A DNA stretch of 64,000 nucleotides from a virus. A program made the position numbers and the translations under genes. The stretch lies in the IMG/VR virus record IMGVR_UViG_3300025669_002431; one strand, 5' to 3'. Every line of letters starts with the position of its first letter. Position 1 is the first letter of the stretch. The notes beneath the pieces are model-generated. The model ran no database searches. It was not told where the DNA came from and saw only the letters and a list, made by a program, of their open reading frames with translations. Positions 675 through 61,720 of this stretch are shown piece by piece.

Positions 675-763
675 TGGTGTGGGTGGTAGAATTCGAATCT
701 ACTAGGTCCGTTAGGACACAGGGTTTACAGCCCTGTCCAGCCCTCCATCTCTGGCGCACCCAC
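675..763 (-). tRNA. tRNA-Tyr (anticodon GTA), bacterial type with long variable arm, CCA encoded
   Basis: Hand-folded: acceptor GTGGGTG/CACCCAC, T-arm GTAGA-TTCGAAT-TCTAC, anticodon loop CTGTAAA, 16-nt variable stem-loop, 3' ACCA. Confidence 0.75.
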
Positions 764-1493
764 TCAAAGACAACTCATAACTCTTGGCCCATTTTCTGAC
801 AGCATTGTCAGATACCCCATACTTCTCACCTATCTTTACAATACTAATCATATTAATTTCTTTTAATAATTGTTTTTTTGAAGGTCTTACAACCTTTCTT
901 AGGCTTATTCCTTTTTTCTTATTAGAACAGGATATACATCTTATACTCTTTTGAGATATGACCTTTCCACAGTCCTTACATACTACTTGAGATTTCTCTA
1001 AAATTATTTTTGTATTGATTTTTAATTTTAATTTTAATTGTTTCTCTCTTATAATCGTATGGGTTAAAGTGTGACAATTTGAACAGAGGATTTGCAAATT
1101 CTCCAATCTATTGTCGATCCTATCCATATTTATATGATGTAATTCTAATCCTATACTATGCCCCCTCCATTTAGAGAGATTACATTCTTCACAAACTTTT
1201 GTTCGAATCCCTCTAGAATATAACATTTCTTTTATTTTTGTTGTTTTTTTAATCGGAGAATTTTCGCAAAAGACTTCTTCATTTTTATATTTATAATGCG
1301 GTTGTCTTTTAGATCTATGATTCTTCTCAGAAAAATGGGAAAAATTAATATCAAGTTTTTTCATTTTTTTAATTAGTCCTGACCTATTTCCAGGGGAGGT
1401 AACAGATAATCCCATCTTTTCAATTAATTCGGTTAAATTGATACTCTCTTTAACTAACTTATCCAACTTTTTTTTATTCATACAATTCTCCAT
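711..1493 (-). CDS. HNH homing endonuclease
   Basis: HNH motif LELHHINMDRIDNRLENLQILCSNCHTLTH with flanking Cys pairs. The likely true start is MNKKK at 1481 (RBS GGAG). The 3' end overlaps tRNA-Tyr, as with T4 segB in a tRNA cluster. Confidence 0.8.
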   Translation of the reverse strand: MENCMNKKKLDKLVKESINLTELIEKMGLSVTSPGNRSGLIKKMKKLDINFSHFSEKNHRSKRQPHYKYKNEEVFCENSPIKKTTKIKEMLYSRGIRTKVCEECNLSKWRGHSIGLELHHINMDRIDNRLENLQILCSNCHTLTHTIIREKQLKLKLKINTKIILEKSQVVCKDCGKVISQKSIRCISCSNKKKGISLRKVVRPSKKQLLKEINMISIVKIGEKYGVSDNAVRKWAKSYELSLSGCARDGGLDRAVNPVS

Positions 1494-1504: not shown

Positions 1505-1567
1505 AATATCTCTACCTATTACTATATATATTCATATATGAGTACATAAATATAGGAGGATTTATTA

Positions 1568-1669
1568 TGAATACAGAAACTAAAATCATAATAGTTAAAT
1601 CATTACTTGCTCTGGTTGTCGTCGCGGCACCCATCATAGCGCAAGAAATTATTAACAGTTTCAGCTAAC
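1568..1669 (+). CDS. small hydrophobic peptide (33 aa), plus strand
   Basis: AGGAGG sits 7 nt upstream of the ATG. Product MNTETKIIIVKSLLALVVVAAPIIAQEIINSFS is followed by a hairpin and T-run terminator. Its 3' end lies inside the duplicated element. Confidence 0.3.
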
Positions 1670-1714
1670 TGATACAAAAGGAGATGTGATCGTAACACAT
1701 CTCTTTTTTTGTTC
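1639..1714 (+). repeat. 76-nt conserved element, copy 1 (second copy at 29454..29530)
   Basis: About 85% identical to copy 2. The hairpin stem differs by compensatory changes (gagatgtg/cacatctc versus gaaatgtg/cacatttc). Confidence 0.7.
1681..1711 (+). terminator. rho-independent terminator (hairpin + T7), plus strand
   Basis: gagatgtg-atcgtaa-cacatctc followed by ttttttt. Confidence 0.55.
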
Positions 1715-1789
1715 TTTTACTAAAAGTTTAAAGTTTGTCCTCAAATAAATTAACGATAGATTAACCTAGAGAATGATTAACAGTTCGAG

Positions 1790-3775
1790 TTACTTAACCA
1801 TCTCAAGAAACACCGCCTCCGACAACATGGGGATTTTAAGCTGCTTCGCTTTAGCCACCTTCCCCGGGCTGGGTTTTTCCCCTACTACCAAATAGTCAAC
1901 TCTTTTTGATATTGTTGATACAATTTTTCCACCATTATTTCTAACAGCGTCTACAAACTCAACTCTTGTAAATTCTTTAAATTTTCCCGTACCTAATAAT
2001 TTCTTTCCTTTTAGTGGACCGCCTAATACTCCACCATCTACGTTTTTAACTGTAGCCATATTTAATCCAGCTCCTTTCAATCTCGTTACAAGTTCAATAT
2101 TTTTTGGTTGATCGAAAAAGTCTATAATTCCATCTGCGACTAATTCTCCAATTCCATCTACTACCATCAACTCATTTTTACTCATTTTTATAAGATCATC
2201 AATAGTTAGGAACTTATTAGCAAGAATCTTCGATAACGTTCTACCAACGTTATGTATCTGCATCCCACATAACACTCTATTGAATGATTGTTCTTTTGAC
2301 TTCTCTATTGCAGCTAATATATTATCAGCAGATTTTTCACCAATTCTCTCAAGCTTCAGTAATTGTGCTTTTGTAAGGGTATATAGATCTGCAACTGTTT
2401 TTACCAATCCAGTATCAATCAATTGAGCAATAAGCATATCTCCAATATTATCTATATCCATCACATCTCTTTTGACAAAATATTCTATCGTGCCTTTGAG
2501 CTGTGCAGGACAAGAAGGATTGGAACATATGTAATAAGCATTAACTTTCTTTACATTACCTCTACATACTGGACACTTCTTTGGAATCTTTGAAACTTTT
2601 GGAACTCTTCCTGTTTGCCCTGGAACTGGTCCTACTACTTGTGGAATTATTTCCCCAGCCTTCTCGACTAAGACCATATCTCCTTCTCTAATGTCTTTCT
2701 CTGCTAATATCTCAAAGTTATGAAGAGTTGCTTTCTTAACCATTGTACCAGCTAAAAGAATTGGTTGGAGATGAGCTACTGGTGTGATTATCCCAGATTT
2801 GCCAACTTGTAAACCAATACTCAGCAACTTCGTACCTCTTCTCTCGGCAGGAAATTTGTATGCAATGAGCCACTTCGGATGATGTGATGTTTCTTCAAAT
2901 GTATCTCTACTGATAGCACTATCTACTTTAACTACCACTCCATCTATTGGATAAGAGAGTTCATATCTAGCAGTATCCCAACGTGCAATATAGGCCATCA
3001 TTGCTTCTTTAGAATCAACGGTAACCGAATGTTGATTTGTTCGAAATCCTAATGTTCGCATATTATTCAGATCAACAGATTGGTATGGGGAATTACCTCC
3101 AATCATTCTGAACATAAAGTTTCTAAGGTTTACTTTACCTGCTTCAGTAGAATTCTTTCTTTTGAGTATTCCTGCTGCAGCATTTCTTGGATTCATGAGA
3201 AGCTTCTCGCCTGCGTCTTCTTTGATTTTATTTATTCTATCAAACTCTACAAATTCCATGTATATTTCGCCACGTACCTCTACATCTACATCGCATGTTA
3301 ATGTCAAGGGTATATCATGAATGGTTCGAACTGTATGAGTTACATCATCTCCTGATTCACCATCTCCTCTTGTGACTGCTCTCACAAGCTTCCCATTTTT
3401 ATAAGTTACTGAAATTGCTACACCATCTATTTTCAATTCAGCGGATAGGTCTTCTCCTTCACCTATCTTACACCCTTTGTCGTTTACTCTGTCTACAAAT
3501 CCTTCCACTTCTTCTTGGTTGTATGTGTTTCCAATGGATAGCATTGGGACGTCATGATTGACAGAAGTAAATTTATCAATTACCTCTCCACCAACTCTTT
3601 TGGTTGGGGAGCAGGAGGTGTCCAATTCTGGATGTTCTTTCTCAAATTTAATCAGAGCATGTAGTCTTTTATCATATTCTTGATCTGTAATCTTTGGCTC
3701 TGCTTGTACATAATATCGTTCATTGTGTAAAATGATTTCTGCCGTCATGGCAGAGTGTCTTTCTTGAACATCCAT
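1790..3775 (-). CDS. ligA: NAD-dependent DNA ligase (LigA family)
   Basis: Adenylation motif ELKIDG, four-Cys zinc finger CPVCRGNV...C, HhH region and C-terminal BRCT-like tail. About 660 aa, typical LigA size. Confidence 0.93.
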   Translation of the reverse strand: MDVQERHSAMTAEIILHNERYYVQAEPKITDQEYDKRLHALIKFEKEHPELDTSCSPTKRVGGEVIDKFTSVNHDVPMLSIGNTYNQEEVEGFVDRVNDKGCKIGEGEDLSAELKIDGVAISVTYKNGKLVRAVTRGDGESGDDVTHTVRTIHDIPLTLTCDVDVEVRGEIYMEFVEFDRINKIKEDAGEKLLMNPRNAAAGILKRKNSTEAGKVNLRNFMFRMIGGNSPYQSVDLNNMRTLGFRTNQHSVTVDSKEAMMAYIARWDTARYELSYPIDGVVVKVDSAISRDTFEETSHHPKWLIAYKFPAERRGTKLLSIGLQVGKSGIITPVAHLQPILLAGTMVKKATLHNFEILAEKDIREGDMVLVEKAGEIIPQVVGPVPGQTGRVPKVSKIPKKCPVCRGNVKKVNAYYICSNPSCPAQLKGTIEYFVKRDVMDIDNIGDMLIAQLIDTGLVKTVADLYTLTKAQLLKLERIGEKSADNILAAIEKSKEQSFNRVLCGMQIHNVGRTLSKILANKFLTIDDLIKMSKNELMVVDGIGELVADGIIDFFDQPKNIELVTRLKGAGLNMATVKNVDGGVLGGPLKGKKLLGTGKFKEFTRVEFVDAVRNNGGKIVSTISKRVDYLVVGEKPSPGKVAKAKQLKIPMLSEAVFLEMVK

Positions 3776-3994: not shown

Positions 3995-4085
3995 AAGATA
4001 AACTATATGGGATTTGAACCCACATTTCCGGATTGCGGTCCGGTGCCCTACCAATTAGACGAATAGCCGCTATACATATTGTCTC
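3995..4085 (-). pseudogene. degenerate tRNA-like sequence (pseudo-tRNA)
   Basis: Has a T-arm GTGGG-TTCAAAT-CCCAT and a D-loop AATTGGTA motif. Acceptor and anticodon stems do not pair canonically and no CCA is present. Confidence 0.35.
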
Positions 4086-4098
4086 TTCTCTCACAGGA

Positions 4099-4119
4099 AG
4101 GATTTCACATTGTTCCGAT
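4099..4119. repeat. direct repeat flanking pseudo-tRNA (copy 2)
   Basis: 20 of 22 nt identical to 3964..3985. Confidence 0.55.
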
Positions 4120-4183
4120 TCTTCATAGCATTTCGAACTACTATTAGTGTCCCGTCTTCATTCCTTACCGCATAAAAACTATA

Positions 4184-4489
4184 CTATAATTCATCCACAA
4201 CGCATGCTATTGAATGTTCTTTATATATAAATAATCTTCTCTTCTCTGCATTCATTACTGGTACACAATGATCTTGTTCACCAATTACTATAATATCTCC
4301 AACCTTTACTTGCATTGGAATTCTATCACCATCAGCCATCCTTTTACCAGGACCTACTGCAAGTACTGTTGCAAACTGACGCGGTAATATATTCTCATTC
4401 ATCATAGGCATAATAATATTTCCAACCTTCTCTTCAGGTGGTAATATTTCCAATAAAACATTATCTAAAATCGGGTTATAACTTTCCAT
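4184..4489 (-). CDS. groES: GroES/Hsp10-type co-chaperonin (T4 gp31 analogue)
   Basis: Aligns along its length to bacterial GroES (VLAVGPGKR..., VKVGDIIV...). 101 aa. Confidence 0.88.
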   Translation of the reverse strand: MESYNPILDNVLLEILPPEEKVGNIIMPMMNENILPRQFATVLAVGPGKRMADGDRIPMQVKVGDIIVIGEQDHCVPVMNAEKRRLFIYKEHSIACVVDEL

Positions 4490-7073: not shown

Positions 7074-7102
7074 GGAGAGGAAGACATAACACCTCCCTCT
7101 CC
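7074..7102 (-). terminator. GC-rich hairpin downstream of the MVP-like gene
   Basis: Stem GGAGAGG / CCTCTCC lies between the MVP stop (7123) and the REC RBS. The U-tract is weak. Confidence 0.3.
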
Positions 7103-19855: not shown

Positions 19856-19947
19856 GGTTATACCCTTTCTTTGTTCGTTGTTTTTGAGGACAAACTATAA
19901 ACTGGTAGGCACGCTTGTCCTGCACTACGCCCTTGGAGATAAAATTA

Positions 19948-20516
19948 TGAAAAATCTTAATGAAAATGAACTTAGAGATCTATATTTAAATAAAGAATTA
20001 AATCCGTATGAGATAGGAAAATTGTTAGAATGTGATCATAAAACAATTAGGAAATACTTAAAAGTATATAATATTCCTATGAGGTCTGCATCAGAATATA
20101 ATTATATCCCTCGTAGATCACACACTAATCCTATTAAGGGGGAATATATGATACCATCGTCTATAGCTGCTCATGTTGCATATTTATGTGAGGGTTGGCA
20201 TACTGAGAAAACTGATATGTTACAGTTTTGTAACACAGATCCAAATTTGATAGATTTATTTACTAATTGTTTAACCAATGTATATAAAGTCAATAAATAT
20301 AGACTAGTAATAATGTCTAATTCTAAAGAGGAATGTGATCATCTTTTAAAATTATATCCAAATGCTTCTCAGTATATAGAAGCCGGTCGAAAAACTCCTT
20401 TAGTTAGAGTTATTTGTGGTGGAAAAACTATAGCTAGAGATTTTATAAAAAATGCATACTCTATATTAGAAATGGTAGGCGGGGAGGGAGTCGAACCCTC
20501 AGACACCAGATTCTAA
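19948..20516 (+). CDS. HTH-containing protein, possible free-standing homing endonuclease
   Basis: The only convincing plus-strand gene. RBS GGAGATAAAATT-ATG. N-terminal HTH (NUMOD1/sigma-r4-like: ELRDLYLNKELNPYEIGKLLECDHKTIRKYL). The 3' end runs into the tRNA at 20473. Confidence 0.4.
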
Positions 20517-20549
20517 ATCTAGCCGCTTTGCCAGTTTGCGCACCCGCCC
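20473..20549 (-). tRNA. type-I tRNA with anticodon TAG (Leu anticodon but short 5-nt variable loop)
   Basis: Acceptor GGGCGGG/CCCGCCT (G1:U72), anticodon arm CTAGA-TTTAGAA-TCTGG, T-arm GAGGG-TTCGACT-CCCTC, ACCA. No long variable arm. Confidence 0.55.
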
Positions 20550-28839: not shown

Positions 28840-28858
28840 TTAATCTCCTTTCATATAA

Positions 28859-29452
28859 TTACCATCTCTTTTTATTAAATTCTTTATTACGAATTCTTAC
28901 TGAATCTTTGTTTAGAGATCCATAATTCTCAGTTAAAGAATGGCAATTTGGACACAATAAATCTAAATTATGTTCTTTAGAGTTTCTAGCATCCCCATCT
29001 ATATGATGTATTGATAATGGAATATTTCCAGATGTTGAATTTATTTCACTCCATCCACATCTACTACATTTATTATCATATTTCTCAAACATATACCTTC
29101 TAATAAATTTTAATAGTGTATAATCTTTTCCGGTATATCCAGGAATTAATTCGCTTTTCCAATTTTTGATTCTTATTTTATATTGATGTTCTCTACAGCA
29201 TTCTTGAGAACAGTATTTTTTACCCCTATTTTTAATAATATTTTTACATTCTATACATACATATTCAATTGAATTTTTTAAATGGGGCCCTCTTTTACAA
29301 TTTTTTAATTTTTCTGATGTTCTATTATTATATAAAGCTGAACAACTACTATTGCAGAATTTTTTCTTCCCACTTAATATTTTATTACACTCTAAACATG
29401 TATGAGTCATACATGATTCATAATGCCTAGAATAATTTGAGGCACAATACAT
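28859..29452 (-). CDS. HNH homing endonuclease with Cys-rich repeats (paralog family 1)
   Basis: HNH motif LSIHHIDGDARNSKEHNLDLLCPNCHSLTENYG. FCNSSCSALYNNR-type repeats. Confidence 0.8.
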   Translation of the reverse strand: MYCASNYSRHYESCMTHTCLECNKILSGKKKFCNSSCSALYNNRTSEKLKNCKRGPHLKNSIEYVCIECKNIIKNRGKKYCSQECCREHQYKIRIKNWKSELIPGYTGKDYTLLKFIRRYMFEKYDNKCSRCGWSEINSTSGNIPLSIHHIDGDARNSKEHNLDLLCPNCHSLTENYGSLNKDSVRIRNKEFNKKRW

Positions 29453-29453
29453 T

Positions 29454-29530
29454 GCGCAAGAAGTTATTAACAGTCTTATCTAGCTGATACAAAAAGAAAT
29501 GTGCTCACAACACATTTCTTTTTTTGTTTC
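29454..29530 (+). repeat. 76-nt conserved element, copy 2 (hairpin + T9), abutting the HNH start
   Basis: gcgcaagaagttattaacag...gaaatgtg-ctcacaa-cacatttc-ttttttttt. About 85% identical to 1639..1714. Confidence 0.7.
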
Positions 29531-30038
29531 ATTTTCCCTTAAAGTCGGGTAGACAATTCCCATTATCGGGTTTCTTACTCATAATATCTTTTAGTTGATC
29601 AAAACTAATAGGTGTAAACTTATTACTATCAACTCCAACGTCATGACTCTTTCCAATGGATGGAAGAGTACCATGACTGTGTCCATATAGATGCCAACTG
29701 TTACGATGAGAATTATCCCATACTCTCATAGCATAATGACATAGTATTAACCTTCTACCTTCATGTCTTAAAATAATTATCTGAGGCAATCTTGGAAATA
29801 TTTGATTAATATCTTTATCGTGATTTCCTTGACAAAATATAATTTTACCATTTAACCTAAGAAGCATTTGATTTGTTTTAATTGTAGAATTATAAAAGCT
29901 AAAATCTCCAAGATGATATACAGTATCTCCAGATGATACAACACTGTTCCAATTCTTTACCATAGTTTCATCCATCTCTTCTTTGGATTTAAATGGACGA
30001 TTACAATACTTTATAATATTTTTATGCGAAAAATTCAA
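29529..30038 (-). CDS. calcineurin-like metallophosphoesterase
   Basis: MPP motifs GDxxY/GDF (HLGDFSFY), GNHD and GHSHG. Confidence 0.8.
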   Translation of the reverse strand: MNFSHKNIIKYCNRPFKSKEEMDETMVKNWNSVVSSGDTVYHLGDFSFYNSTIKTNQMLLRLNGKIIFCQGNHDKDINQIFPRLPQIIILRHEGRRLILCHYAMRVWDNSHRNSWHLYGHSHGTLPSIGKSHDVGVDSNKFTPISFDQLKDIMSKKPDNGNCLPDFKGK

Positions 30039-30119: not shown

Positions 30120-30812
30120 CTATAAACTAAAAAATGTCCAACCATCAACTCGATCATTTACGAATTGAATGCTTATAAACCCGCTACTTTCTCCTCTAAA
30201 CATATTCCCAGTCCACTCCCAGTTCATTGTACGATGAATATCACCATCCCCCCAATTCATTTCCATACCTTTCTTACCATGTACACCCATTATTCTTACT
30301 ACTTGATTATATGTCATTCCTTTTTTAAGTTTATTGACATATGATTGTGGATTGAATGATGAGTTATTTCTTTTAGATGGTTCGTACTGTGGTGTAACCG
30401 ATTTAGTATGTTTTGGTTTAGATGACATGTCATCTATCATTGATGGTGGCTTGACTATTTTTTTAGGTAATTCTGCTGGTATTGGTGCTGGTGTAGTGGA
30501 TGTTGGTGGTTGTCCTATTTGAGATGTATTATTAACATCAACCATTATACATGTCGTTACAAAAATACTAAATATTAAAATCAATCCTCCACATCCTATT
30601 CTACCTATATTCTTCCTAAATACATCAAATTTAGCAGTCCATGTAAGATCAGGTACTTCAATTTCATGATTGCAGTGTCTACATTTTCCAGTCGTATTAG
30701 CATATTGATCTGGAATATTAAGATAATGTCCACAATTATGACAAGTGAAATTAATCATAAATGTTGTTTCCTTTCTAATATCTTTTTCTATTGTCCGGTC
30801 TTCCATTCCCAT
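30120..30812 (-). CDS. membrane protein with N-terminal zinc ribbon and Pro/Thr-rich linker
   Basis: CHNCGHY...CRHCNHE ribbon, one TM (GGLILIFSIFVTTCIMV), then a PPTSTTPAPIPAELP linker and a C-terminal domain. Confidence 0.4.
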   Translation of the reverse strand: MGMEDRTIEKDIRKETTFMINFTCHNCGHYLNIPDQYANTTGKCRHCNHEIEVPDLTWTAKFDVFRKNIGRIGCGGLILIFSIFVTTCIMVDVNNTSQIGQPPTSTTPAPIPAELPKKIVKPPSMIDDMSSKPKHTKSVTPQYEPSKRNNSSFNPQSYVNKLKKGMTYNQVVRIMGVHGKKGMEMNWGDGDIHRTMNWEWTGNMFRGESSGFISIQFVNDRVDGWTFFSL

Positions 30813-31542
30813 TATTTAATATCCCATAATTTTCAGTTAGAGAATGACAATTTGGACATAACATCCTAAGATTATCTGGCTTATTATTTTTCCAGTTACC
30901 ATCTATATGATCTAAATGAATAGGAACTTTACCAGTGATTTGATGGATTTTATCCCAACTACACATAGAACATTTTTTTCCATCTCTTTCTATGATATAA
31001 TTTCTTACAAATGTAGCGGTTTGAACTTTACCATACATACCATTAGTTTCACCAGATATCCATTTTTCTACATTTTTTATATATTTATTATATCCAGCGC
31101 ATTTATGAGAACAAAACTTTCGAGGTCGCCCCTTAAATTTTATTCCACATTGTTGACATATATAATTTCCATCTTCATCAGAATGTATTTTATTTTTACT
31201 TATCGGTCCTCTTCGGCATGATTTAAGTCCTTCAGAATTTTTATTATTATATATTCCAGCACATTTATGAGAACAAAACTTTGCTCTATTATCTTTTGAT
31301 GTTAGTTTTTCACCACACTCTAAACAGAAGTTCTCTCGTTTACATGCATTTAAATGTTTTTTATGATTTGCTTTTAATATTTTTTTATTACAATTTTCAC
31401 ATATTTTGAATCTATTTTCAGTTATTCTACTAGTTTTTTTCTTTATTTCTGGGCAAGAAGACCAGTGTTTTGAACAACACCATTTACCATTTTTTAATTG
31501 ATATTTACCTTCATTCCCACAACCATAATTACATAAAATCAT
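30775..31542 (-). CDS. HNH homing endonuclease with Cys-rich repeats (paralog family 1)
   Basis: HNH motif IHLDHIDGNWKNNKPDNLRMLCPNCHSLTENYG. FCSHKCAGIYNNK repeats. Confidence 0.8.
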   Translation of the reverse strand: MILCNYGCGNEGKYQLKNGKWCCSKHWSSCPEIKKKTSRITENRFKICENCNKKILKANHKKHLNACKRENFCLECGEKLTSKDNRAKFCSHKCAGIYNNKNSEGLKSCRRGPISKNKIHSDEDGNYICQQCGIKFKGRPRKFCSHKCAGYNKYIKNVEKWISGETNGMYGKVQTATFVRNYIIERDGKKCSMCSWDKIHQITGKVPIHLDHIDGNWKNNKPDNLRMLCPNCHSLTENYGILNNGNGRPDNRKRY

Positions 31543-31611
31543 AGGACAAATACTCCTTTTATATATTTGTCCTCAAAATTTTAAGAGCAATAAATGTGAT
31601 TCAAATTAAAG

Positions 31612-36184: not shown

Positions 36185-37128
36185 TAGTTTACCTTCCTAT
36201 TCAGAACCTTTAAGGCTTTCTTTATTGAGCCTAAAGGAACTGAGTTTGTTGCTGTGTCAATATTTAATGTGTATAATTTGTAAGGAAAATATCGAGTATA
36301 TTCTTTGATTTTATTCATCATAATACAACGATCCCAACCTAGTATTTCTCCAGCTAACCACATAGGACCACTGTTTATTCCAATGAAGTATTTACACTCT
36401 GCTATTTTATTCATCATGTCTATAATAGTTCCCCCTGATTCCCTCATGGTATTTCCATTCATCCATTTAGGAATAGGTTGGACACAATAATGTGGCAGCA
36501 TAGGAACATTCATATGAATTTCAAATGGATCATATCCCATCGCTTTAACATCATTCCATACTATTTCGGGACCACCATCCATTAAACTTTTTTTACTATA
36601 AGCAGTATTACCAATGAAATGAATGCCCACCATATTAGAATTTTTAACAGGTTTTATTTTAGGTCTCCAGTTACCCCAATCAACATCTAATCCAAATTCT
36701 AATTTCGCTACATTTTGAAACTTCTTCAGCTTAGAATTCATGGGCTGTTCTGGAAACTTTAAAACAAATATATAATCATATTCTTTAATATATGAACTAT
36801 CATATTTTTCTTTAAATGTATCTTTGAATACAGAAGGTCTATCGTGTTTTCCTTTTGTCTTATTTAAAATCACAATATCTTCGTGTAATCCTTTGACTTG
36901 GATCATGGGGTGACAACCTATATTGAACTCCCAATTAGGATATTTTTTCTTAAGTACTTCATATATCTGGAAGAACATTATGAAGTCGCCAAGCCCATGA
37001 TCGAAAACAAAGAGAGCTTTCCCTGATTTTTTCCTGTTAAGATAAGAACAGACAGTGGCTCTCTTTGAAACTATATTCTCTATTAGCATATTATTTCCAA
37101 ACGTCGGCGTCTTCCTCACTTGTTTCAT
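36184..37128 (-). CDS. putative glycosyltransferase (GT9/heptosyltransferase-like N-terminus)
   Basis: ALFVFDHGLGDFIMFFQIYEVLKKKYPNWEFNI resembles the GT9 signature. Weak. Confidence 0.35.
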   Translation of the reverse strand: MKQVRKTPTFGNNMLIENIVSKRATVCSYLNRKKSGKALFVFDHGLGDFIMFFQIYEVLKKKYPNWEFNIGCHPMIQVKGLHEDIVILNKTKGKHDRPSVFKDTFKEKYDSSYIKEYDYIFVLKFPEQPMNSKLKKFQNVAKLEFGLDVDWGNWRPKIKPVKNSNMVGIHFIGNTAYSKKSLMDGGPEIVWNDVKAMGYDPFEIHMNVPMLPHYCVQPIPKWMNGNTMRESGGTIIDMMNKIAECKYFIGINSGPMWLAGEILGWDRCIMMNKIKEYTRYFPYKLYTLNIDTATNSVPLGSIKKALKVLNRKVN

Positions 37129-39376
37129 ACTGTTCTATTATCTCAGTTCTAAGCACGTCCTCTACATCATTATCCCATGCTTTTCTAAATTCAGCATTTT
37201 CTCTGTAATATTTAATCGCTTCCTTCTGTCTAAACTTCTGAGTAGGATACGATTCTAATGTACACCAAGCGGCAGCTTTAATTCTTTTTGTTCTCTTTAG
37301 TAGTTCATAATTTGTCCAGAAGTTTGAGAAGCCTCTTTCGAAACTAACTATCATGGATATGTCAATGTTTGGAGAAAATAACTTATTCTTTACAGCCTTT
37401 CCTGTGAGCTTAACTCCATTGAATCCATACTCTCCTGCTACATCTCCAGTAGGCCTGAAGAAAAAAAGTTGTGTAGATGCGAATAGATTAGCATTACCTC
37501 CTGGAATATTATACGCTCCAAGAAATTTTAGTTTATTAAATCCTTTGAATTTACCAACCTGCATACTATCTCTAAGTTGATTCAGAGCGAACAAACATAT
37601 ATTATAATTTGCCATCTTATCAGAATATTTTTTAAGATATTTAGTAAGGGCACTTGCTTGTATACTTAATTGTTCTGTATTAGTTGTTACCTCAGCTTCA
37701 GTAGGAGTACTCGCTATACTATCCCATACTATAATGGATGGTACATCTAGTATATCTTTGTGTTCTTCCTTATATGCACATAACCCCTCAACGATTGAGA
37801 ATACCTTTTCGATTGTAATTCCATTTTGTGGATTTATCTCTGGATATTTAACTCCAAGATCTGTAAGTCTTTTTTTAGTAGTTGTATTTTCTGAATCTAA
37901 GTATACTGATATAAATTTTCCAGGCCATTTCCTTTGACCCGAAGATATAACCTTCGCAGCCAATGTAGAGTTATGAGTAACTATGAACTCGTCAGTTATA
38001 TATGACCCATTTGGATTATTAACTTCTATGCACTGAGCTTCTGATTTTTCAACAAACTTAACCGATTTTATACATTTCGTTATGGTTCTTTTTCTTATAT
38101 TTGATAATAACTTTGATTTTTCTTTTACTCTTACTGGGGGAAAACAATTTGGTAGGTTTATATCTAGTTGAAATGATTTAAAAATATTCCCATTATATTT
38201 TGTTTTTTTATTATATATTTTTATTCTTCCTCCCAATGATCTAATTATAAATGCTACGTCATCTATCAATCGTTTAGATATTGAATAAAAACACATTCTA
38301 TTTGTTTTTTCTATAGATCCATCAGTATCACATAACCCTTGTAAGATTGATAATCTATCATCAATTGAACTAAATTTATATGAATCTGGTATAAATTTAT
38401 CTTTAGAACTTTTTCCCAATAATCCTAATTCATTTAAAATAACTTTCATCTCATTGCGTAAAATATCTTTTTTGCCTTGACCTCTTCTATTCATTCTATT
38501 AAATATATATCCGTATTTTGAGCCATTAATTACCTCTAATTTTATATTATCTGGGAGGGTTTTTTCACAAATATTTATAATTTCTTTATATTTATCAGAT
38601 ACTGTAAGAGATATTTTATCATTTCGACTATACATAGATCCATCTCCCAAAAGGCACCCCAATAAATATGGGTCAATCGGTAAATTATTTTTATCAAAAT
38701 TAATAGCATTATTAACAGGTATGGTCCATTTTTTATCGCTAGTATGTTGGTTATTTATATCTTCAAAAATCTCTTCTAATCGTCTAACTTTAAATTCTGA
38801 TTTATAATCTTTTTTACATATCCAAAGATGGTCTAACGTGGATCTAGCTTTGGTTCCGTCGGTAAATTTTATTTCATATATATCCTTTTCCCCCTGTGGA
38901 GATACATTTGTAATATTACAAATTTCCCCTCTAGAATCAAATACATTATTTCCTATTTTCATTTCTCCCATAGTCTTCCAACCACTAGGTGTTAAAATTT
39001 TAGAATACAATGGTTGTGCTTTTCCACAACCAGGAGGCCCAACAAATTGTACTAATCCTGTCGAGACTCCTCCACCAAGTACAGTATCCAATAGATCTAT
39101 ACCAGTAGGAATAGTTGTCTTATTTTCTTTTGATTCAGTAAAGTCATATCCTTTTTTAAGGAAAGAAGAAAAGTCTTCAAATAAGTCTTTAGATTTTTCT
39201 AATTCACCTTCTGTCAGCTTGACATCCGAATATTTACTAGTTATTAATGTATCTTCTTCTATTGATGCTGCCGCTTCCGTTGGGACCTGAGGTAGCAAAG
39301 TTTTCTTTTTCTTTTTCTCCTGCACTGCAGGAATTGATTCTTCTTCAACAAGTTTATCCATTATCTTCCTTTCCAA
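37091..39376 (-). CDS. RecA/UvsX-family recombinase interrupted by a LAGLIDADG intein in the Walker A loop
   Basis: The extein reads LGGGVSTGLVQFVGPPGCGK-STLAAKVIS...VYLDSE, a RecA-like P-loop. The insert has LAGLIDADG motifs (LLGCLLGDGSM, LQGLCDTDGSIE) and ends THN|S. Confidence 0.7.
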   Translation of the reverse strand: MERKIMDKLVEEESIPAVQEKKKKKTLLPQVPTEAAASIEEDTLITSKYSDVKLTEGELEKSKDLFEDFSSFLKKGYDFTESKENKTTIPTGIDLLDTVLGGGVSTGLVQFVGPPGCGKAQPLYSKILTPSGWKTMGEMKIGNNVFDSRGEICNITNVSPQGEKDIYEIKFTDGTKARSTLDHLWICKKDYKSEFKVRRLEEIFEDINNQHTSDKKWTIPVNNAINFDKNNLPIDPYLLGCLLGDGSMYSRNDKISLTVSDKYKEIINICEKTLPDNIKLEVINGSKYGYIFNRMNRRGQGKKDILRNEMKVILNELGLLGKSSKDKFIPDSYKFSSIDDRLSILQGLCDTDGSIEKTNRMCFYSISKRLIDDVAFIIRSLGGRIKIYNKKTKYNGNIFKSFQLDINLPNCFPPVRVKEKSKLLSNIRKRTITKCIKSVKFVEKSEAQCIEVNNPNGSYITDEFIVTHNSTLAAKVISSGQRKWPGKFISVYLDSENTTTKKRLTDLGVKYPEINPQNGITIEKVFSIVEGLCAYKEEHKDILDVPSIIVWDSIASTPTEAEVTTNTEQLSIQASALTKYLKKYSDKMANYNICLFALNQLRDSMQVGKFKGFNKLKFLGAYNIPGGNANLFASTQLFFFRPTGDVAGEYGFNGVKLTGKAVKNKLFSPNIDISMIVSFERGFSNFWTNYELLKRTKRIKAAAWCTLESYPTQKFRQKEAIKYYRENAEFRKAWDNDVEDVLRTEIIEQYETSEEDADVWK
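37970..39019 (-). mobile_element. intein with LAGLIDADG homing endonuclease (in the RecA-like gene)
   Basis: About 350 aa with block A-like ILTPSGWKTM..., two LAGLIDADG motifs and C-terminal ...IVTHN followed by Ser. Confidence 0.6.
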
Positions 39377-48348: not shown

Positions 48349-48495
48349 TTATTTCTTTTTCGCTGCTTGTTTCTTTTTCATACTTCTATATGCTAGATAT
48401 CCAGCACCACCTGCCGCCACTGCCGCCCCTCCCACTCCTACTATTACCGCCGATTTCTCTTCTAAATAATCTATAAACATATTAGATTCATGCAT
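48349..48495 (-). CDS. small single-TM protein with Lys-rich tail (48 aa)
   Basis: Not in the ORF track. MHESNMFIDYLEEKSAVIVGVGGAAVAAGGAGYLAYRSMKKKQAAKKK has holin-like architecture. Confidence 0.35.
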   Translation of the reverse strand: MHESNMFIDYLEEKSAVIVGVGGAAVAAGGAGYLAYRSMKKKQAAKKK

Positions 48496-50260: not shown

Positions 50261-50842
50261 CTATTTTATTCTTGTTATAGTTCCAGTGTACGATAGAAAT
50301 GCTGCTAATGGAATGCTCCAAAACAAGGTGAGAAACATCCCAGTAAATATTGGCCCCCAAAATTTCATAGCATTCCCTGCATCTGCATCAGCAACTATTT
50401 CATATGTTGCCCCTTTAACTTCTACGGTAAACTTATGATATGGATTGGAACCAGAATTCCATCTAACATTACAATCTATATTTTTAACTCCTTTTGCATC
50501 GGCGACCACCTTACTTGAGAGCCCACCCTTTGGAAAAAGTGCTATGTTTGCCCCTAACATTTCTCCCTTCTTTTTAGGTAATCCTGAATCAAAAAGCATA
50601 TACGATGTAGCAGCACCAGCCAACAGCTGCCAACCTACTTTTTTTGATCTATCTTCTGCCTGAATGATAGTACCCCCTCCATAATAACTACCTTCTTTTA
50701 AAACTTCTGGACTTAGAAGTTCTTCAATTTTCCGTTCACTTACATATGTTTTCTTTTCCATTGCTACTTCTCCATTGCTACTTCTCATATATTTATAATG
50801 TGTACACATTACAACCACAGTCCCAAATACGATCATACCCAT
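50261..50842 (-). CDS. membrane protein (N- and C-terminal TM segments)
   Basis: MGMIVFGTVVVMC... and ...IFTGMFLTLFWSIPLAAFLSY. Confidence 0.35.
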   Translation of the reverse strand: MGMIVFGTVVVMCTHYKYMRSSNGEVAMEKKTYVSERKIEELLSPEVLKEGSYYGGGTIIQAEDRSKKVGWQLLAGAATSYMLFDSGLPKKKGEMLGANIALFPKGGLSSKVVADAKGVKNIDCNVRWNSGSNPYHKFTVEVKGATYEIVADADAGNAMKFWGPIFTGMFLTLFWSIPLAAFLSYTGTITRIK

Positions 50843-52634
50843 TGAGTTGCATATTCTGCCACTCAGTTAAATTTGAATCAAATGATTCTAATAAATTTTT
50901 TAATTTATGCTTCTGAAATTTAATTCTAGAGGATCTATCTCCATTCTTAACATAATAATAAGAAGGCTTAGATTTAGAAGTAAAACTAAATCCATTCTTT
51001 AAATAAACTTCACCAGTTCCATATCTTAAATCACAATATGTGATAATTGATTTAGGATTATATTTAGTTTTAAAATACTTTAATAATTTAGAGAACCCAC
51101 CAACAACACTAGTATTAATCTTATTACAAAATCTTAATATTTCATATTCGTATTTTTTATTATATCTGGATTTACCAATGGTTAAAATAGAAACTAATTC
51201 GTCTTCGAAATATAGTCCATATTGTGTTCCTTTGATAGAACCCTGAATGTGGTTATCAAATAAAAATAATTGGGCATTATCATTTGCAACTTCTTTAATA
51301 GTACATTTACGAGCAAATACCCGATATTTAGTTAACCCTAGTTTATTTTTGATTATAGACTTAACAATTTCTAGCTTATCAATCCATTCATCTTCGAAGA
51401 CATGTAAAAGATTTATTCCTTTTTCTTTACATTTATAAGTTTTATCCAAGTGATAATCTTTATTTTTACCATTAAGATCCGAATGCCAGTATAAACCATT
51501 ATATTCGATAGCAAGGTTATTGGATAGTATGTAGACGTCGAGTTCCTTACCGATTAATACAGAGCGGTCATTCTCTATTATTTCAATATCGTCGGTTAAG
51601 ATTGATCTACAAAAATCAAAAATCTCTTTCTCACCTTTGGAACAACTATTCAATTTAGGATAACAATTTGAGCATCTTGGGATTTTGCCATTGTCTACAC
51701 TATCGTTAAAATCATTTCCACATTTAATGCAGTTCCAAGAATATTCAAAATCAACCCCTTGAAAATCATTCTCTGTGAAATTTGGAGCGCATTTATTTTT
51801 AAGTCGATCAGAATTAATAAGATTAGTGAAAAATTTGCTTCTTCTTTTTTGTGTAGTATTATATATTATTTCATCTAATTGCAGAATTGTTTTTACACCA
51901 TATTTCTTTAAATTAGTTTTCTCAATTTTGTCTCTAATTTCTTTAGAGTTAGAAGCGTGTTCTACACCATATTTTTTTAGATTTGTATTTTTAATTTTTT
52001 CTTTCACTTTTTCAGATTGGAAAACACATTCAACACCATGTCGGTTCAAATTAGTTTTTTTAATCTTAGATTTAATATCTTTATTCTGACCAACATTTTC
52101 AACACCATATAGTTCTAAATTAGTTTTCTTAATCTTATCTCTTATTTCCTTAGATTGTAGTGGATTTTCAACACCATATCGTTTCAGGTTAGTTTGTTTC
52201 ATTTTAGTTCTTATCTCTGATGACTGGCCGGAATATTCTACACCATATTTTTCTATCATAGTATGTTTAGCACGATCTCTGATTTTTTTAGATCTCGATA
52301 CATGATCTACACCATACCTTTTTTGAAATGTTTTTTTAGTTTTAATTTTAGTCTCTTCAGCTTGCAATGTGCATTCAACACCATATCGTTCAAGACTGCT
52401 TCGTTTTCGTTTTTCTACCCCGTGTTTTCCGCCGCACGACGCCGAACAAGTTTTAGTAAATCCTTTGCCAAGTCCTTTAAAGTTACATAACTGGCCACAT
52501 ATAGGACATTTATTATTAGAATTAATATATTTTAAATAGTATATCATAATATTTATTTTATGAAAACTACGGATATGTCCTGATAGTTGAACTAAATTCT
52601 TAAATTCTTTATCACATATTTTACAGTTTATCAT
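50793..52634 (-). CDS. modular endonuclease: C2H2 zinc finger + about 8 NUMOD3-like 29-aa repeats + Vsr/DUF559-like nuclease domain
   Basis: CKICDKEF...HIRSFH C2H2. Tandem repeats KTNLxxYGVExxxQSKEIRDKIKK. C-terminus DVYILSNNLAIEYNGLYWHSD...GINLLHVFEDEW matches the Vsr-like endonuclease core. Confidence 0.55.
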   Translation of the reverse strand: MINCKICDKEFKNLVQLSGHIRSFHKINIMIYYLKYINSNNKCPICGQLCNFKGLGKGFTKTCSASCGGKHGVEKRKRSSLERYGVECTLQAEETKIKTKKTFQKRYGVDHVSRSKKIRDRAKHTMIEKYGVEYSGQSSEIRTKMKQTNLKRYGVENPLQSKEIRDKIKKTNLELYGVENVGQNKDIKSKIKKTNLNRHGVECVFQSEKVKEKIKNTNLKKYGVEHASNSKEIRDKIEKTNLKKYGVKTILQLDEIIYNTTQKRRSKFFTNLINSDRLKNKCAPNFTENDFQGVDFEYSWNCIKCGNDFNDSVDNGKIPRCSNCYPKLNSCSKGEKEIFDFCRSILTDDIEIIENDRSVLIGKELDVYILSNNLAIEYNGLYWHSDLNGKNKDYHLDKTYKCKEKGINLLHVFEDEWIDKLEIVKSIIKNKLGLTKYRVFARKCTIKEVANDNAQLFLFDNHIQGSIKGTQYGLYFEDELVSILTIGKSRYNKKYEYEILRFCNKINTSVVGGFSKLLKYFKTKYNPKSIITYCDLRYGTGEVYLKNGFSFTSKSKPSYYYVKNGDRSSRIKFQKHKLKNLLESFDSNLTEWQNMQLNGYDRIWDCGCNVYTL

Positions 52635-55246: not shown

Positions 55247-55333
55247 TTAAATAGATATGTCCAACCCAGCTAGAATTGACAGTATCATTGACAAAAAGTT
55301 AATAATCGCTGTGATAATTTCTAAAACACTCAT
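55247..55333 (-). CDS. small hydrophobic peptide (28 aa)
   Basis: Not in the ORF track. AAAGGAGAGAAACC-ATG RBS. Product MSVLEIITAIINFLSMILSILAGLDISI, with its stop abutting the next ATG. Confidence 0.35.
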   Translation of the reverse strand: MSVLEIITAIINFLSMILSILAGLDISI

Positions 55334-55404
55334 GGTTTCTCTCCTTTTTAATTAATTTGTACACGAGGTACTATCTTATACTAATTTGTCCTCACTAAAA
55401 AAAA

Positions 55405-58400: not shown

Positions 58401-58635
58401 TACAATGATTTAGTTGAATTGTATAACATCCTTCCACTACTCGTTTGAGAGTCTCCCAAAATTCTTCATATCTATCTTCTTTTTCAATATATCGACTATA
58501 CGTTCTTTTATATGTAATAGCTCCAACTGGTCCCCAATTAGGTTGCTCGTTTGTATATTGATCTAAAAAATTCTCTGTCAAATTAAACTTTTCCCTGATT
58601 GGAAAAACCCAATCACTCATGTCAACTTTTGTCAT
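55405..58635 (-). CDS. nrdJ: class II (adenosylcobalamin-type, monomeric RTPR-like) ribonucleotide reductase interrupted by a LAGLIDADG intein
   Basis: Active-site GLNPCAEMSL...CLLCETF (N-x-C-x-E). C-terminal redox pair FCDNGSC (C-x4-C). The extein is about 700 aa. The insert has block B ECTPNHMVFV, LAGLIDADG motifs (IGYLYGDGCL, ISGLIDSDGCV) and ends SHN|T. Confidence 0.7.
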   Translation of the reverse strand: MTKVDMSDWVFPIREKFNLTENFLDQYTNEQPNWGPVGAITYKRTYSRYIEKEDRYEEFWETLKRVVEGCYTIQLNHCKNLRLYWNAHKAQKSAQKMFELMWNFKFLPPGRMLWTLGEDVVWKKGVAVLLNCGFCSTEDLHYDFSGPFCWLMDVALLGVGCGFDLKGAGKVKIQEPKVGDYVFTIDDSREGWRDAVEVVLNSYVHKSKMPREFDFSKIRPNGSFIKTFGGIAPGPGPLKLCIEEIKLVLNKCVDKYITSVNIVDIFNIVGKCVVSGGQRRSSEIAIGEYDDIDFLNMKNPEKYEKELKDWRWNSNNSVFAEVGADYTQLTKHIINNGEPGIVYLDNMRKYGRIKDGEKWEDEGVCGLNPCAEMSLSKYEMCLLCETFPANHENEEEFLETLKYAYLLAKSVTLVPSHDERTNQVMLRNRRIGLSMSGITDAIYKFGRRRFLNEFCDSGYNNIRKLDKLYSRWLCVPKSIKVTTTKPSGCRPGRSLTSTDRGILSLDELLEEHPEDLEWNNDHSDSYVYQKNSKNKILRTYRNSTSKIIKIKMNYNLDFECTPNHMVFVSEHMNASSEKGGYKRIDVNKWICANDVRAGDIIHISMNSYRKNICSKLSHSAIPDTFIGARGNIITQPEYMNNDLAWIIGYLYGDGCLSRHKFRTRFIDENKYNLEKAKKIIYDLFGLDSNIKPASQDRNAFVLEIGSRHLWDFWNINGITKYDEQGNISVIPRIVRESSKENILAFISGLIDSDGCVFVRDGDVGICISTAYDNFAKNIQEVGFSVGLCFGRSLNTEGENKQEIKHIWNLTLNSHTDINSLHVLLKTSNKLIKINDMRNPPHDISFKCLTESQNVLILGKVVSVHELEGYEETYDLEVDKDHWYYSGGIKSHNTVSLLPGSNPGIHFPHSEYYIRRIEFQKNSPFIKPLEIAGYKKEQSYYKKNSWIFEFPIRTKNFFKSKRDITIWEQMALHADIQHYWSDNGVSQTVTFNENESNSIKDVLEVYEDKIKAVSFLPLDVKSYKQMPYEEITKEKYELYISTLKPLKLSKIKMTKEEEIESKETLKFCDNGSCEIKK
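55960..57156 (-). mobile_element. intein with LAGLIDADG homing endonuclease (in the RNR gene)
   Basis: About 399 aa, SLTSTDRGIL... to ...YYSGGIKSHN. Blocks A, B, C/E, F and G are recognisable. Confidence 0.6.
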
Positions 58636-61548: not shown

Positions 61549-61720
61549 TTACTTCTCCTATTATATTTTAACATATCCAAAAAAATCCATCTCATTTTTA
61601 TAATTATTAAAAACTGAGTTAATTGTTTTAATGTCAGTTTTTGTTAAATTTTTAAGCTGAGTATTGTTATAGTTTAAAACTTTGTCCTCAAGCTTTTAGA
61701 CCAAATATAAATAATTCATA

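Follow-up and report, generated by a model that had tools for sequence, protein, structure and literature searches.

A two-copy repeat with a terminator-shaped hairpin beside two HNH endonuclease genes of a T4-like phage

Genes and features at the two repeat loci

The window, by which we mean the whole stretch of phage DNA analysed here (64,000 nucleotides, IMG/VR record IMGVR_UViG_3300025669_002431), has its genes on the minus strand. It holds at least four HNH genes and two inteins, and ragged homing-endonuclease insertion is common in this genome. Two of the HNH genes, called HNH#1 and HNH#2 below, each lie next to one copy of a short repeat. The features of the two loci and of one related gene are:

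711-1493, minus strand: HNH#1, a free-standing HNH endonuclease gene (phrog_10822, residues 6-239)
1567-1668, plus strand: 33-aa ORF, MNTETKIIIVKSLLALVVVAAPIIAQEIINSFS, with one hydrophobic helix, an ORFan; AGGAGG at 1554-1559, 7 nt before the ATG
1626-1714 (core 1639-1714), plus strand: repeat copy 1, with the final 10 codons of the 33-aa ORF and their stop, then a 7-nt spacer, the hairpin and the T7 run
1676-1708, either strand: copy 1 hairpin, 13-bp stem, 7-nt loop, -14.4 kcal/mol, followed by T7 on the plus strand and CUUUUGUAU on the minus strand
1726-1744, minus strand: promoter-like motif TTGAGGACAAACTTTAAAC, between the ligase stop codon (1790) and the hairpin
1790-3775, minus strand: NAD-dependent DNA ligase gene, its 3' end facing copy 1
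28859-29452, minus strand: HNH#2 endonuclease gene (phrog_1271), without SD or promoter motif, its ATG at the repeat edge
29436-29483, plus strand: start-less remnant of the small ORF in copy 2, FEAQYIAQEVINSLI and then a stop; in-frame TAA at 29433-29435 and no start codon after it
29441-29530 (core 29454-29530), plus strand: repeat copy 2, occupying the entire 76-nt gap from the Metallophos_2 stop codon (29529-29531) to the HNH#2 ATG (29450-29452)
29491-29523, either strand: copy 2 hairpin, 13-bp stem, -12.0 kcal/mol, followed by T7 on the plus strand and, after an 8-bp core stem, by U5 on the minus strand
29529-30038, minus strand: Metallophos_2 phosphoesterase gene, its stop codon abutting copy 2
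30775-31542, minus strand: HNH#4, a full-length HNH#2 paralog of 255 aa, with its own TGAGGACAAA motif and SD

HNH#1 and HNH#2 match PHROG HNH families (E 6e-36 and 6e-20, respectively), their HH..N..H cores align, and tblastn matches annotated phage HNH and hegA genes. The last ~17 codons of HNH#1 run into a tRNA-Tyr at 675-763. Residues 5-191 of HNH#2 align to residues 58-253 of HNH#4, compared with which HNH#2 lacks 57 N-terminal residues, a promoter motif and a ribosome-binding site; this alignment gives HNH#2 the look of a gene formed at a junction. Searches around both HNH genes gave no group I intron and no member of any other Rfam family. Around the element itself, Rfam gave no match at gathering score, and generic hairpin noise alone at E up to 10.

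Extent and distribution of the repeat

The original prediction described two copies of about 85% identity at 1639-1714 and 29454-29530, and blastn agrees: 64 of 75 positions are identical (85.3%, E 5e-12). A repeat search widens the pair to 88 nt (1626-1713 and 29441-29528, ungapped, 82%), and the ATG of HNH#2 falls within the 13 nt added by this extension. Past the repeat core, homology on either side was not significant when compared with shuffles, and neither was its extension into the 5' part of the small gene or the 3' end of the phosphoesterase gene. No other dispersed non-coding repeat in the window is of appreciable size, and the core patterns occur there exactly twice against an expectation of 0.01-0.05. 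Because both copies are also present, unchanged, in independent ENA, Logan and JGI assemblies, the repeat is not an assembly artefact.

Searches for further copies returned none that was convincing. With blastn-short no third copy was detected in ~81 kb of this phage (the window together with L090 and L092), and megablast gave no match in INPHARED. A covariance model built from both copies and run over 0.9 Mb, covering this and 72 related phage loci, found its own two copies alone. IMG/VR pattern scans gave zero matches besides one chance match inside a portal-like gene, and a scan of GTDB genomes gave one chance match, in Glaciecola. The JGI metagenome scan returned nine chance matches with dissimilar flanks, in a collection that evidently lacks the JGI contig carrying this phage. 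As far as these searches reach, the repeat is private to this phage.

No relatives of the ligase were found in IMG/VR, and among 5.8 billion proteins its next best match after itself is bacterial, at ~46%. Homologs of HNH#1 reach at most 40% identity. Exact-protein look-ups with six window genes returned identical contigs only, every one of them carrying both HNH genes, and the population contigs searched held no HNH-free allele. L002, the closest phage that carries the phosphoesterase (60% identity), shows no synteny. Assembly breaks at the borders of HNH#2 hint at heterogeneity, with no HNH-free contig found. Other phages carry homologs of the length of HNH#2 (about 165-197 aa), so that the truncation of this gene is uncertain.

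A probable small plus-strand gene and its fragment

The 33-aa ORF, whose final 10 codons and stop lie in copy 1, is in our view likely to be a real gene. No other small hydrophobic ORF with an SD before it was found on the plus strand; three small SD-preceded ORFs like it lie elsewhere in the window, and the spacing of its AGGAGG resembles that of other genes of the genome. One source (JGI) lists it as a predicted protein. Its mRNA folding is unusually strong (z = -3.7), with the start-codon region paired. Codon-usage scoring, which also set the ORF against the antisense 41-aa ORF, gave a LOD of 0.01 versus 0.24 +/- 0.11 for real genes; this is not gene-like, and another likely small peptide gene scores equally low. 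A degenerate promoter motif at 1539-1548, before the ORF, has two mismatches and is not robust in alignment. The peptide has no tblastn match in phages and no family match in Pfam, PHROGs or NCBIfam, toxin families included, and among 1.84 billion representative proteins it matches itself alone.

The 41-aa ORF, which runs on the minus strand from the ATG in copy 1, was considered as an HNH relic and rejected: it shows no similarity to any HNH and is not the HNH#1 gene.

Because copy 2 keeps the reading frame and the stop codon (TAA changed to TAG), with stops upstream and the start codon absent, it is a gene fragment. The five differences in the coding part of the remnant show no third-position bias. 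The original prediction had stated that it would be refuted if the element were simply the conserved 3' end of a duplicated gene, and this is largely what is found, with a repeat that begins inside the 33-aa ORF and a second copy that is start-less. Its description of copy 1 as the 3' end and terminator of a 33-aa plus-strand peptide gene fits the coordinates of the last 10 codons, stop, hairpin and T7, and copy 2 does lie at a junction with an HNH gene.

Hairpins with the shape of bidirectional terminators

In copy 1 the arms of the hairpin read GAGATGTG/CACATCTC, and in copy 2 GAAATGTG/CACATTTC. At both sites the full stem has 13 bp and the loop 7 nt, the hairpin folds on either strand, and T7 follows directly on the plus strand, opposite to the genes, where a run of T7-T9 had been described. 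On the minus strand an 8-bp core stem is followed by CUUUUGUAU or UUUUUGUAU: owing to the A-run upstream of the stem, this strand also reads as a hairpin with U4-5. In a terminator scan of 44.5 kb, these two hairpins were the longest-stemmed terminator-like sites reported (13 pairs).

An intrinsic terminator consists of a stable stem-loop with a U-tract directly after it, and both copies have this arrangement. Stop-codon spacing also places both hairpins at the 3' end of a transcription unit: on the plus strand the copy 1 hairpin starts 8 nt past the 33-aa ORF's stop codon, and on the minus strand the copy 2 core stem starts 5 nt past that of Metallophos_2. The hairpins are thus probable terminators with a bidirectional intrinsic-terminator shape, from which we infer possible activity on either strand. 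The terminator reading offered earlier fits this structure, and in copy 1 the hairpin ends a plus-strand ORF that opposes all neighbouring genes.

Like bidirectional Rho-independent terminators, the element has a perfect stem-loop with an A-run upstream and a T-run downstream, and on each strand a stop codon comes directly before it, that of the 33-aa ORF (plus) or of Metallophos_2 (minus). In T4 and E. coli, by contrast, a terminator stem is as a rule rich in G-C and closed by a loop of 4 nt (PMC2988022); the stems here are A-U rich, with only 3-4 G-C pairs of 13 and a 7-nt loop.

Paired stem changes and chance

The original prediction took compensatory mutations in the stem to argue for selection on RNA structure. 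Pairing is indeed kept in both stems, but its retention is not beyond chance (P about 0.1-0.2). Three stem substitutions separate the copies, amounting to one true double change (G-C to A-T) and one change of G·T to A-T. We simulated the divergence by placing 11 substitutions randomly with the observed transition bias kept: all 13 pairs were retained in 10% of trials (6% among trials with at least three stem hits), and the hairpin was at least as stable as that of copy 2 in 19%. Since covariation comes down to one pair in two sequences only, it argues weakly for a structured RNA. As a point of method, one should be wary of inferring selection when all there is to go on is a single compensatory pair in two sequences.

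These figures agree with an account in which copy 2 is functionless, its hairpin having stayed intact through few substitutions and transitions tolerated as G·U, and its position beside an HNH gene reflecting the few sizeable gaps made by endonuclease insertions. Stem divergence (3/26) is similar to that of the dead coding part (5/30), and intergenic gaps of at least 40 nt are few in the window (about two dozen). However, the loop has changed at 3 of 7 positions versus 3 of 26 in the stem, where all changes are compatible with pairing, the T-run and spacer have not changed at all, and the hairpin begins 5 nt past a stop codon, a useful spot for a terminator. We regard such a purely neutral copy 2 as unlikely.

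Promoter-like motifs and signals on the minus strand

The promoter-like motif at 1726-1744 lies 17 nt beyond the terminator and is convergent with the 33-aa ORF. Putative minus-strand transcripts from it would pass through the hairpin, run antisense to the 33-aa ORF and continue into HNH#1. Motifs of this type also precede ordinary genes of the phage. That the motif lies upstream of the copy 1 hairpin sits uneasily with efficient minus-strand termination by that hairpin.

We compared the element with the promoter-early stem-loops (PeSLs) of T4-like phages (Arbiol 2010, PMC2839356; Comeau 2014, PMC4122927). It resembles them as a short intergenic repeat with a terminator stem-loop, spanning in copy 2 the distance from stop codon to ATG, and it lies in a T4-like genome beside non-essential mobile genes, where it is plausibly both substrate and product of short-homology recombination. 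Read on the minus strand as a cassette of this kind, it would first terminate the operon upstream and then provide a weak promoter of sigma70-like type (TTGTAT-N17-TAATAA) and an ATG, making it a portable linker for modular shuffling and endonuclease expression. The TTGTAT fits the nt-1/KVP40 PeSL -35 consensus TTGYVH (PMC4122927), 4 of the 11 differences between the copies fall within the 17-nt spacer between the putative hexamers, and an ATG is aligned in both copies (1635-1637 and 29450-29452) on the strand that carries all genes here.

A PeSL, however, joins its stem-loop to a strong sigma70-like promoter and an SD before the ATG; here the promoter is not convincing and the SD is absent. 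The two hexamers match the consensus at 3/6 positions each, with a -10 that lacks the final T, and stay below the scan threshold; the window has no more sigma70-like sites than shuffles lead one to expect; and the "-10" lies only 11 nt from the ATG, with no SD between them. The phage's own recurrent promoter-like motif is different, and the ATG of copy 1 opens the 41-aa ORF and not HNH#1. Furthermore, the element occurs twice in about 81 kb and not dozens of times, and half of it is the coding end of a gene on the opposite strand. A linker of the PeSL type is quite improbable on these grounds.

Type I toxin-antitoxin loci, such as par/fst of pAD1, consist of convergent RNAs with a shared terminator. 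An equivalent locus here would have the 33-aa peptide as toxin, an antisense RNA, transcribed from the convergent TGAGGACAAA promoter, that is also the HNH#1 5' leader, a shared bidirectional terminator, and in copy 2 a decayed second module beside HNH#2; if this were true, a homing endonuclease cassette would carry its own addiction or regulation device. The resemblance consists of a hydrophobic single-helix ORF of ~33 aa with the strong SD expected of a small toxin ORF, the structured mRNA with its paired start-codon region, a promoter-like motif in convergent position and the bidirectional terminator shape. The locus differs in its lytic-phage context and in having no sequence relationship to such loci. 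The peptide is an ORFan, and no toxin family of Pfam, NCBIfam or PHROGs matches it; small membrane peptides are frequent in T4-like phages generally, this one included; and the promoter motif is generic in this genome, all of which makes a toxin-antitoxin module very unlikely.

Association with the endonuclease genes

Both copies lie at the 5' side of minus-strand HNH genes, as had been observed, and the second abuts the ATG at 29452. The proposal that the repeat marks the boundary of an HNH-associated mobile cassette is not supported: HNH#1 and HNH#2 are 41% identical over just 46 residues, versus 85% for the DNA element, which is missing beside two further HNH genes of the window (30775-31542 and 58654-59175), so the element does not travel with a particular HNH gene. 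By a rough estimate based on the larger intergenic gaps, the chance of both copies adjoining HNH genes is ~(4/25)^2 = 0.03, and because this double adjacency is unlikely by chance, a specific link between the element and the endonuclease genes is possible.

It is highly improbable that the link consists in the block being, or containing, the recognition site of one or both HNH enzymes, so that endonuclease genes end up beside it: free-standing endonucleases do cut near their own insertion site (PMC2988022) and both copies are immediately 5' of HNH genes, but the two enzymes differ in HNH family and in their DNA-binding parts, an endonuclease-bearing genome is normally without an intact target, and HNH#2-like genes are found near a phosphoesterase gene in distant phages that lack the block, which points to the phosphoesterase region as the target instead.

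A gene end probably copied by recombination

The explanation we favour, with a confidence somewhat better than even, is that the element is an ordinary gene end, namely the 3' end of a small plus-strand membrane-peptide gene with its factor-independent terminator, which was copied once and set at a recombination junction that arose around a homing endonuclease. Nothing about it suggests a new kind of RNA element; it has the look of a common terminator that recombination has copied. What stands of the original prediction is the repeat, the hairpins with their terminator shape and the HNH adjacency, including the junction at copy 2; a cassette tied to an HNH gene, covariation exceeding chance and a selected RNA structure are not supported.

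In copy 1, the hairpin and U7 would end the plus-strand transcript of the 33-aa gene before it could continue, as antisense RNA, into the ligase gene. For minus-strand transcripts, coming from the operon upstream or from the TGAGGACAAA promoter, the same hairpin could be a weaker stop or attenuator ahead of the HNH gene downstream. A fragment of this unit of small-gene end and terminator, ~88-105 bp long, would make up copy 2, patched in between the stop codon of the phosphoesterase gene and an N-terminally short HNH gene that has neither promoter nor SD. It would most likely have arrived by illegitimate or short-homology recombination, as accompanies homing-endonuclease insertion or repair in T4-like phages; both this mechanism and the direction of copying, from copy 1 to copy 2, we infer. 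Its coding remnant would be dead, and the intact hairpin may still serve the phosphoesterase transcription unit as a terminator or insulator.

Previous studies of T4 found that free-standing endonuclease genes are set among, and regulated by, intrinsic terminators and hairpins, and that flanking DNA moves along with them (PMC2988022). T4-type phages also recombine at short terminator/promoter repeats (PMC2839356, PMC4122927). The arrangement described here is similar to that of mobE, segF, segD and segB (PMC2988022): HNH genes lie between conserved genes, HNH#2 is promoter-less while HNH#1 and HNH#4 have their own promoter motif, terminators or hairpins just upstream or in the 5' region would limit expression, and flanking DNA would be co-converted. 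The T4 terminators, however, are not described as a repeat common to endonuclease loci, whereas here one 76-nt block precedes two unrelated HNH genes.

If the copied gene end is the correct reading, the locus offers a clear case, on a small scale, of the traffic of homing endonucleases in a T4-like phage, in which an ectopic patch now parts the stop of one gene from the start of the next. For annotation, the gain is modest: a likely real 33-aa gene missed by most gene callers, one gene fragment and two probable terminators. For understanding this phage, the repeat is probably of less use than the recurrent TGAGGACAAA-TATAAA motif.

A probable duplicated gene end with a predicted terminator

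The reading we favour for the element is that of a gene end duplicated along with its predicted intrinsic terminator and located at an endonuclease-associated junction. Its two copies are identical at 64 of 75 positions (85.3%; 1639-1713 versus 29454-29528; blastn E 5e-12), confirming both the placement and the roughly 85% identity of the original prediction. A repeat search lengthens the pair to 88 nt (1626-1713 versus 29441-29528); this left extension and a possible 15-nt right extension were each non-significant when tested separately against shuffles. Core patterns are matched at just these two places in the window (0.01-0.05 expected) and, a tandem coding repeat and short HNH-paralog blocks aside, the repeat search found no other sizeable dispersed repeat there.

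Features at the two loci
711-1493, minus: HNH#1, endonuclease gene (phrog_10822, residues 6-239)
1554-1559, plus: AGGAGG, with ATG 7 nt later, at 1567
1567-1668, plus: 33-codon ORF, MNTETKIIIVKSLLALVVVAAPIIAQEIINSFS (ATG 1567, stop codon 1666-1668)
1676-1708, plus: perfect 13-bp hairpin (7-nt loop), after a 7-nt spacer 3' of the stop codon and followed by T7
1744-1726, minus: motif TTGAGGACAAACTTTAAAC, beyond the T-run of copy 1; the ligase 3' end (1790) follows
28859-29452, minus: HNH#2, endonuclease gene (phrog_1271)

The repeat starts at about codon 20-24 of the 33-codon ORF, and copy 1 was correctly predicted to have the layout of the 3' end and terminator of a plus-strand peptide gene. 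That gene is probably real: its ribosome-binding site resembles the strong sites of the genome's other genes, it encodes one hydrophobic helix, its mRNA fold has z = -3.7, it ends in a terminator-like hairpin of the longest-stemmed type seen in our scan, and it appears as a predicted protein (P0121) in one source, JGI. Codon usage in the ORF does not look like that of a gene, as is also the case for a 28-aa ORF bearing a promoter motif and a Shine-Dalgarno sequence (SD). No homolog of the peptide was found by tblastn of phages, in Pfam, PHROGs and NCBIfam, or among 1.84 billion representative proteins, which returned only itself. HNH#1 starts (1493) divergently, 73 nt from the ATG of the small ORF. 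Other small (28-48 aa) hydrophobic ORFs with strong SDs lie at 12757-12876(-), 48349-48495(-) and 55247-55333(-); these three sat in gaps left unassigned by a 50-aa ORF cut-off.

Copy 2 takes up all 76 nt separating the ATG of HNH#2 (29450-29452, minus), which it had been predicted to abut, from the TGA of a Metallophos_2 phosphoesterase gene (29529-29531, minus). In the plus-strand frame it reads FEAQYIAQEVINSLI and then a stop, with frame and stop codon kept (TAA to TAG). An in-frame stop (29433-29435) lies upstream with no start codon after it, and the sequence upstream of copy 2 has no similarity to the small gene's 5' part. What copy 2 carries is thus a fragment of the gene plus the hairpin. 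The coding remnant is dead, its five differences from copy 1 being without third-position bias. Set against a homolog in a distant phage (L008), the phosphoesterase C-terminus has a normal length.

The hairpin and its substitutions

Both copies score as intrinsic terminators on the plus strand in a terminator scan, and the predicted T-run is present there as T7. With 13 pairs, the two hairpins are the longest-stemmed terminator-like sites in the 44.5 kb scanned, where such sites overall are no more frequent than in shuffles. The stem is preceded by an A-run, so the minus-strand RNA also forms the hairpin, with CUUUUGUAU after it in copy 1 and UUUUUGUAU in copy 2. The shape is that of a predicted bidirectional terminator, stronger in the plus direction.

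The 11 differences between the copies comprise three in the stem, three in the 7-nt loop and five in the coding part, with none in the spacer or T-run. Two of the stem differences make up one G-C to A-T double change and the third turns G·T into A-T. The compensatory change that had been noted is thus present, but the case drawn from it for selection on RNA structure is weak: when 11 random substitutions were simulated with the observed transition bias (9/11), 10% of trials preserved all 13 pairs (6% of those with at least three stem hits), and in 19% the hairpin was as stable as copy 2 or more so. Selection for the hairpin could account for the pattern but is not demonstrated by it; a purely neutral relic is the alternative we consider least improbable, though unlikely. 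Rfam searches gave no match to the element.

In gene-sense orientation the block consists of hairpin, TTGTAT, 17 nt, TAATAA, 11 nt and ATG, in that order. This layout recalls the terminator/promoter arrangement of the promoter-early stem-loop (PeSL) cassettes of T4-type phages, which are delimited by a stop codon and an ATG and mediate modular shuffling (PMC2839356, PMC4122927). Four of the copy differences fall inside the 17-nt spacer between the hexamers, and the ATG is aligned in both copies on the minus strand. However, the block lacks the features that define those cassettes: agreement of the hexamers with consensus is limited to 3+3 of 12 positions, an SD is missing, the copies number two and not dozens, and the copy 1 ATG opens a 41-aa ORF unrelated to any HNH. 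We consider a minus-strand PeSL-like cassette unlikely, slightly more so than a relic. A scan found sigma70-like sites at shuffle level throughout the window.

A recurrent upstream motif

The genome's recurrent upstream signal consists of an A/T-rich stretch, TGAGGACAAA, one base and T(A/T)TAAA, often followed by a 5' hairpin and then SD and ATG; it is probably a phage-specific promoter. Its 10-mer occurs exactly at 1734-1743(-), 19885-19894(+), 31566-31575(-), 55385-55394(-) and 61681-61690(-), and at 7081-7090(+) of L092, a further sequence of the same phage. All six sites are intergenic and three precede endonuclease-like genes (HNH#1, 19947-20516(+) and 30775-31542). The 11-mer TTGAGGACAAA has four exact occurrences, against ~0.03 expected. 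The 28-aa ORF comes after a TGAGGACAAA motif.

On the minus strand of locus 1, the hairpin is downstream of this motif, and HNH#1 transcripts would cross it and be antisense to the small gene. A strong minus-strand terminator is therefore unlikely there; an attenuator or 5' stabilising stem is more likely. In our view it is very improbable that the HNH#1 leader acts as the antisense partner in a type I toxin-antitoxin-like pair.

The neighbouring endonuclease genes

Both copies flank HNH genes, as predicted. Around the catalytic motif, HNH#1 and HNH#2 are just 41% identical over 46 residues, far less than the DNA element, which therefore did not co-duplicate with them, and at least two further HNH genes in the window (30775-31542 and 58654-59175) lack it. 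The latter is immediately upstream of the ribonucleotide reductase gene. Past the conserved domain (ending near residue 239), the HNH#1 ORF lacks its own stop codon and reads ~50 nt into tRNA-Tyr (675-763), an ARAGORN call below the Rfam gathering score; a tRNA at 3999-4069 was found by Rfam and missed by ARAGORN.

Residues 5-191 of HNH#2 align to residues 58-253 of the 255-aa product of its paralog HNH#4 (30775-31542; 41% identity). HNH#2 lacks the 57 additional N-terminal residues of that product, as well as the TGAGGACAAA motif and the SD of the HNH#4 gene. The HNH#2 ATG and first four codons fall within the 13 nt added to the repeat by extension. The start of HNH#2 looks like a recombination junction at ~29440, a reading kept soft by the HNH#2-sized homologs in other phages. 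HNH#4 comes directly after tRNA-Gly, and its 5' hairpin, AGGACAAATA with TATTTGTCCT, takes in the TGAGGACAAA motif itself.

Independent assemblies (ENA megahit, Logan) end at 30858, inside a CPNCHSLTENYG-coding block common to HNH#4 and HNH#2, and at 29462 and 28856-28889, the two HNH#2 borders. These breaks may reflect heterogeneity in the population or recombination between HNH paralogs. No HNH-free allele or relative was found, and population contigs were all identical.

An HNH#2-like gene (~40% identity, same CPNCHSLTENYGSLN end) occurs in two distant phages (L008 6966-7582; L068 about 4004-4468), 0.5-1.5 kb from a Metallophos_2 homolog. Since both phages lack the block, this hints that the endonuclease family is drawn to the phosphoesterase region and not to the block, and a shared homing target in the block is highly unlikely.

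A 189-aa gene at 19947-20516(+), against the genome orientation, has its own promoter motif, an N-terminal domain matching PHROG HNH-endonuclease families (E 4e-5) and a 3' end overlapping tRNA-Leu (20473-20549); it is probably another homing-endonuclease-type insertion.

Proposed origin of the second copy

The account that follows is inferred as regards terminator activity, copying direction and the route of recombination. The end of the small gene plus its terminator would have been copied once, as a unit, and the copy (~88-105 bp) would now link the stop codon of the phosphoesterase gene to a short HNH gene that has no signals of its own. Such a junction would be expected from illegitimate or short-homology recombination during the repair that endonucleases trigger, a process by which flanking DNA is moved in T4-like phages (PMC2988022). 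The copy 1 hairpin would end transcription of the small gene on the plus strand and would probably also limit read-through from the minus strand into HNH#1. At copy 2 the hairpin may still serve as a terminator or insulator separating the phosphoesterase unit from HNH#2, which would fit the low, delayed expression typical of free-standing endonuclease genes (PMC2988022).

The phage

The sequence examined amounts to ~81 kb of a probably larger genome. The window has 34% G+C and matches an 80-kb metagenome contig (ENA ERZ27315536 k141_105526), with identical pieces in other ENA, Logan and JGI assemblies. INPHARED and IMG/VR hold no close relative, and the ligase's top match, besides itself, among 5.8 billion proteins is ~46%. 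Genes are tightly packed, the minus strand carrying nearly all of them and all 10-11 tRNA genes, and the set of genes points to a large lytic phage of T4-like type. Precomputed Pfam hits mark two genes as intein-bearing.

T4-like gene content of the window
3' end at 1790, minus: NAD-dependent ligase
37091-39376, minus: intein-bearing RecA-like protein (LAGLIDADG_3)
55405-58635, minus: intein-bearing ribonucleotide reductase (Intein_splicing and LAGLIDADG_3)
Also in the window: Cpn10 co-chaperonin; DHFR and dCMP deaminase; ClpP and RNA ligase

A tandem repeat (51862-52388) consists of seven copies of a 69-nt unit (61-73% identity) within a 613-aa gene (50793-52634) and corresponds to a repeated 23-residue protein module.
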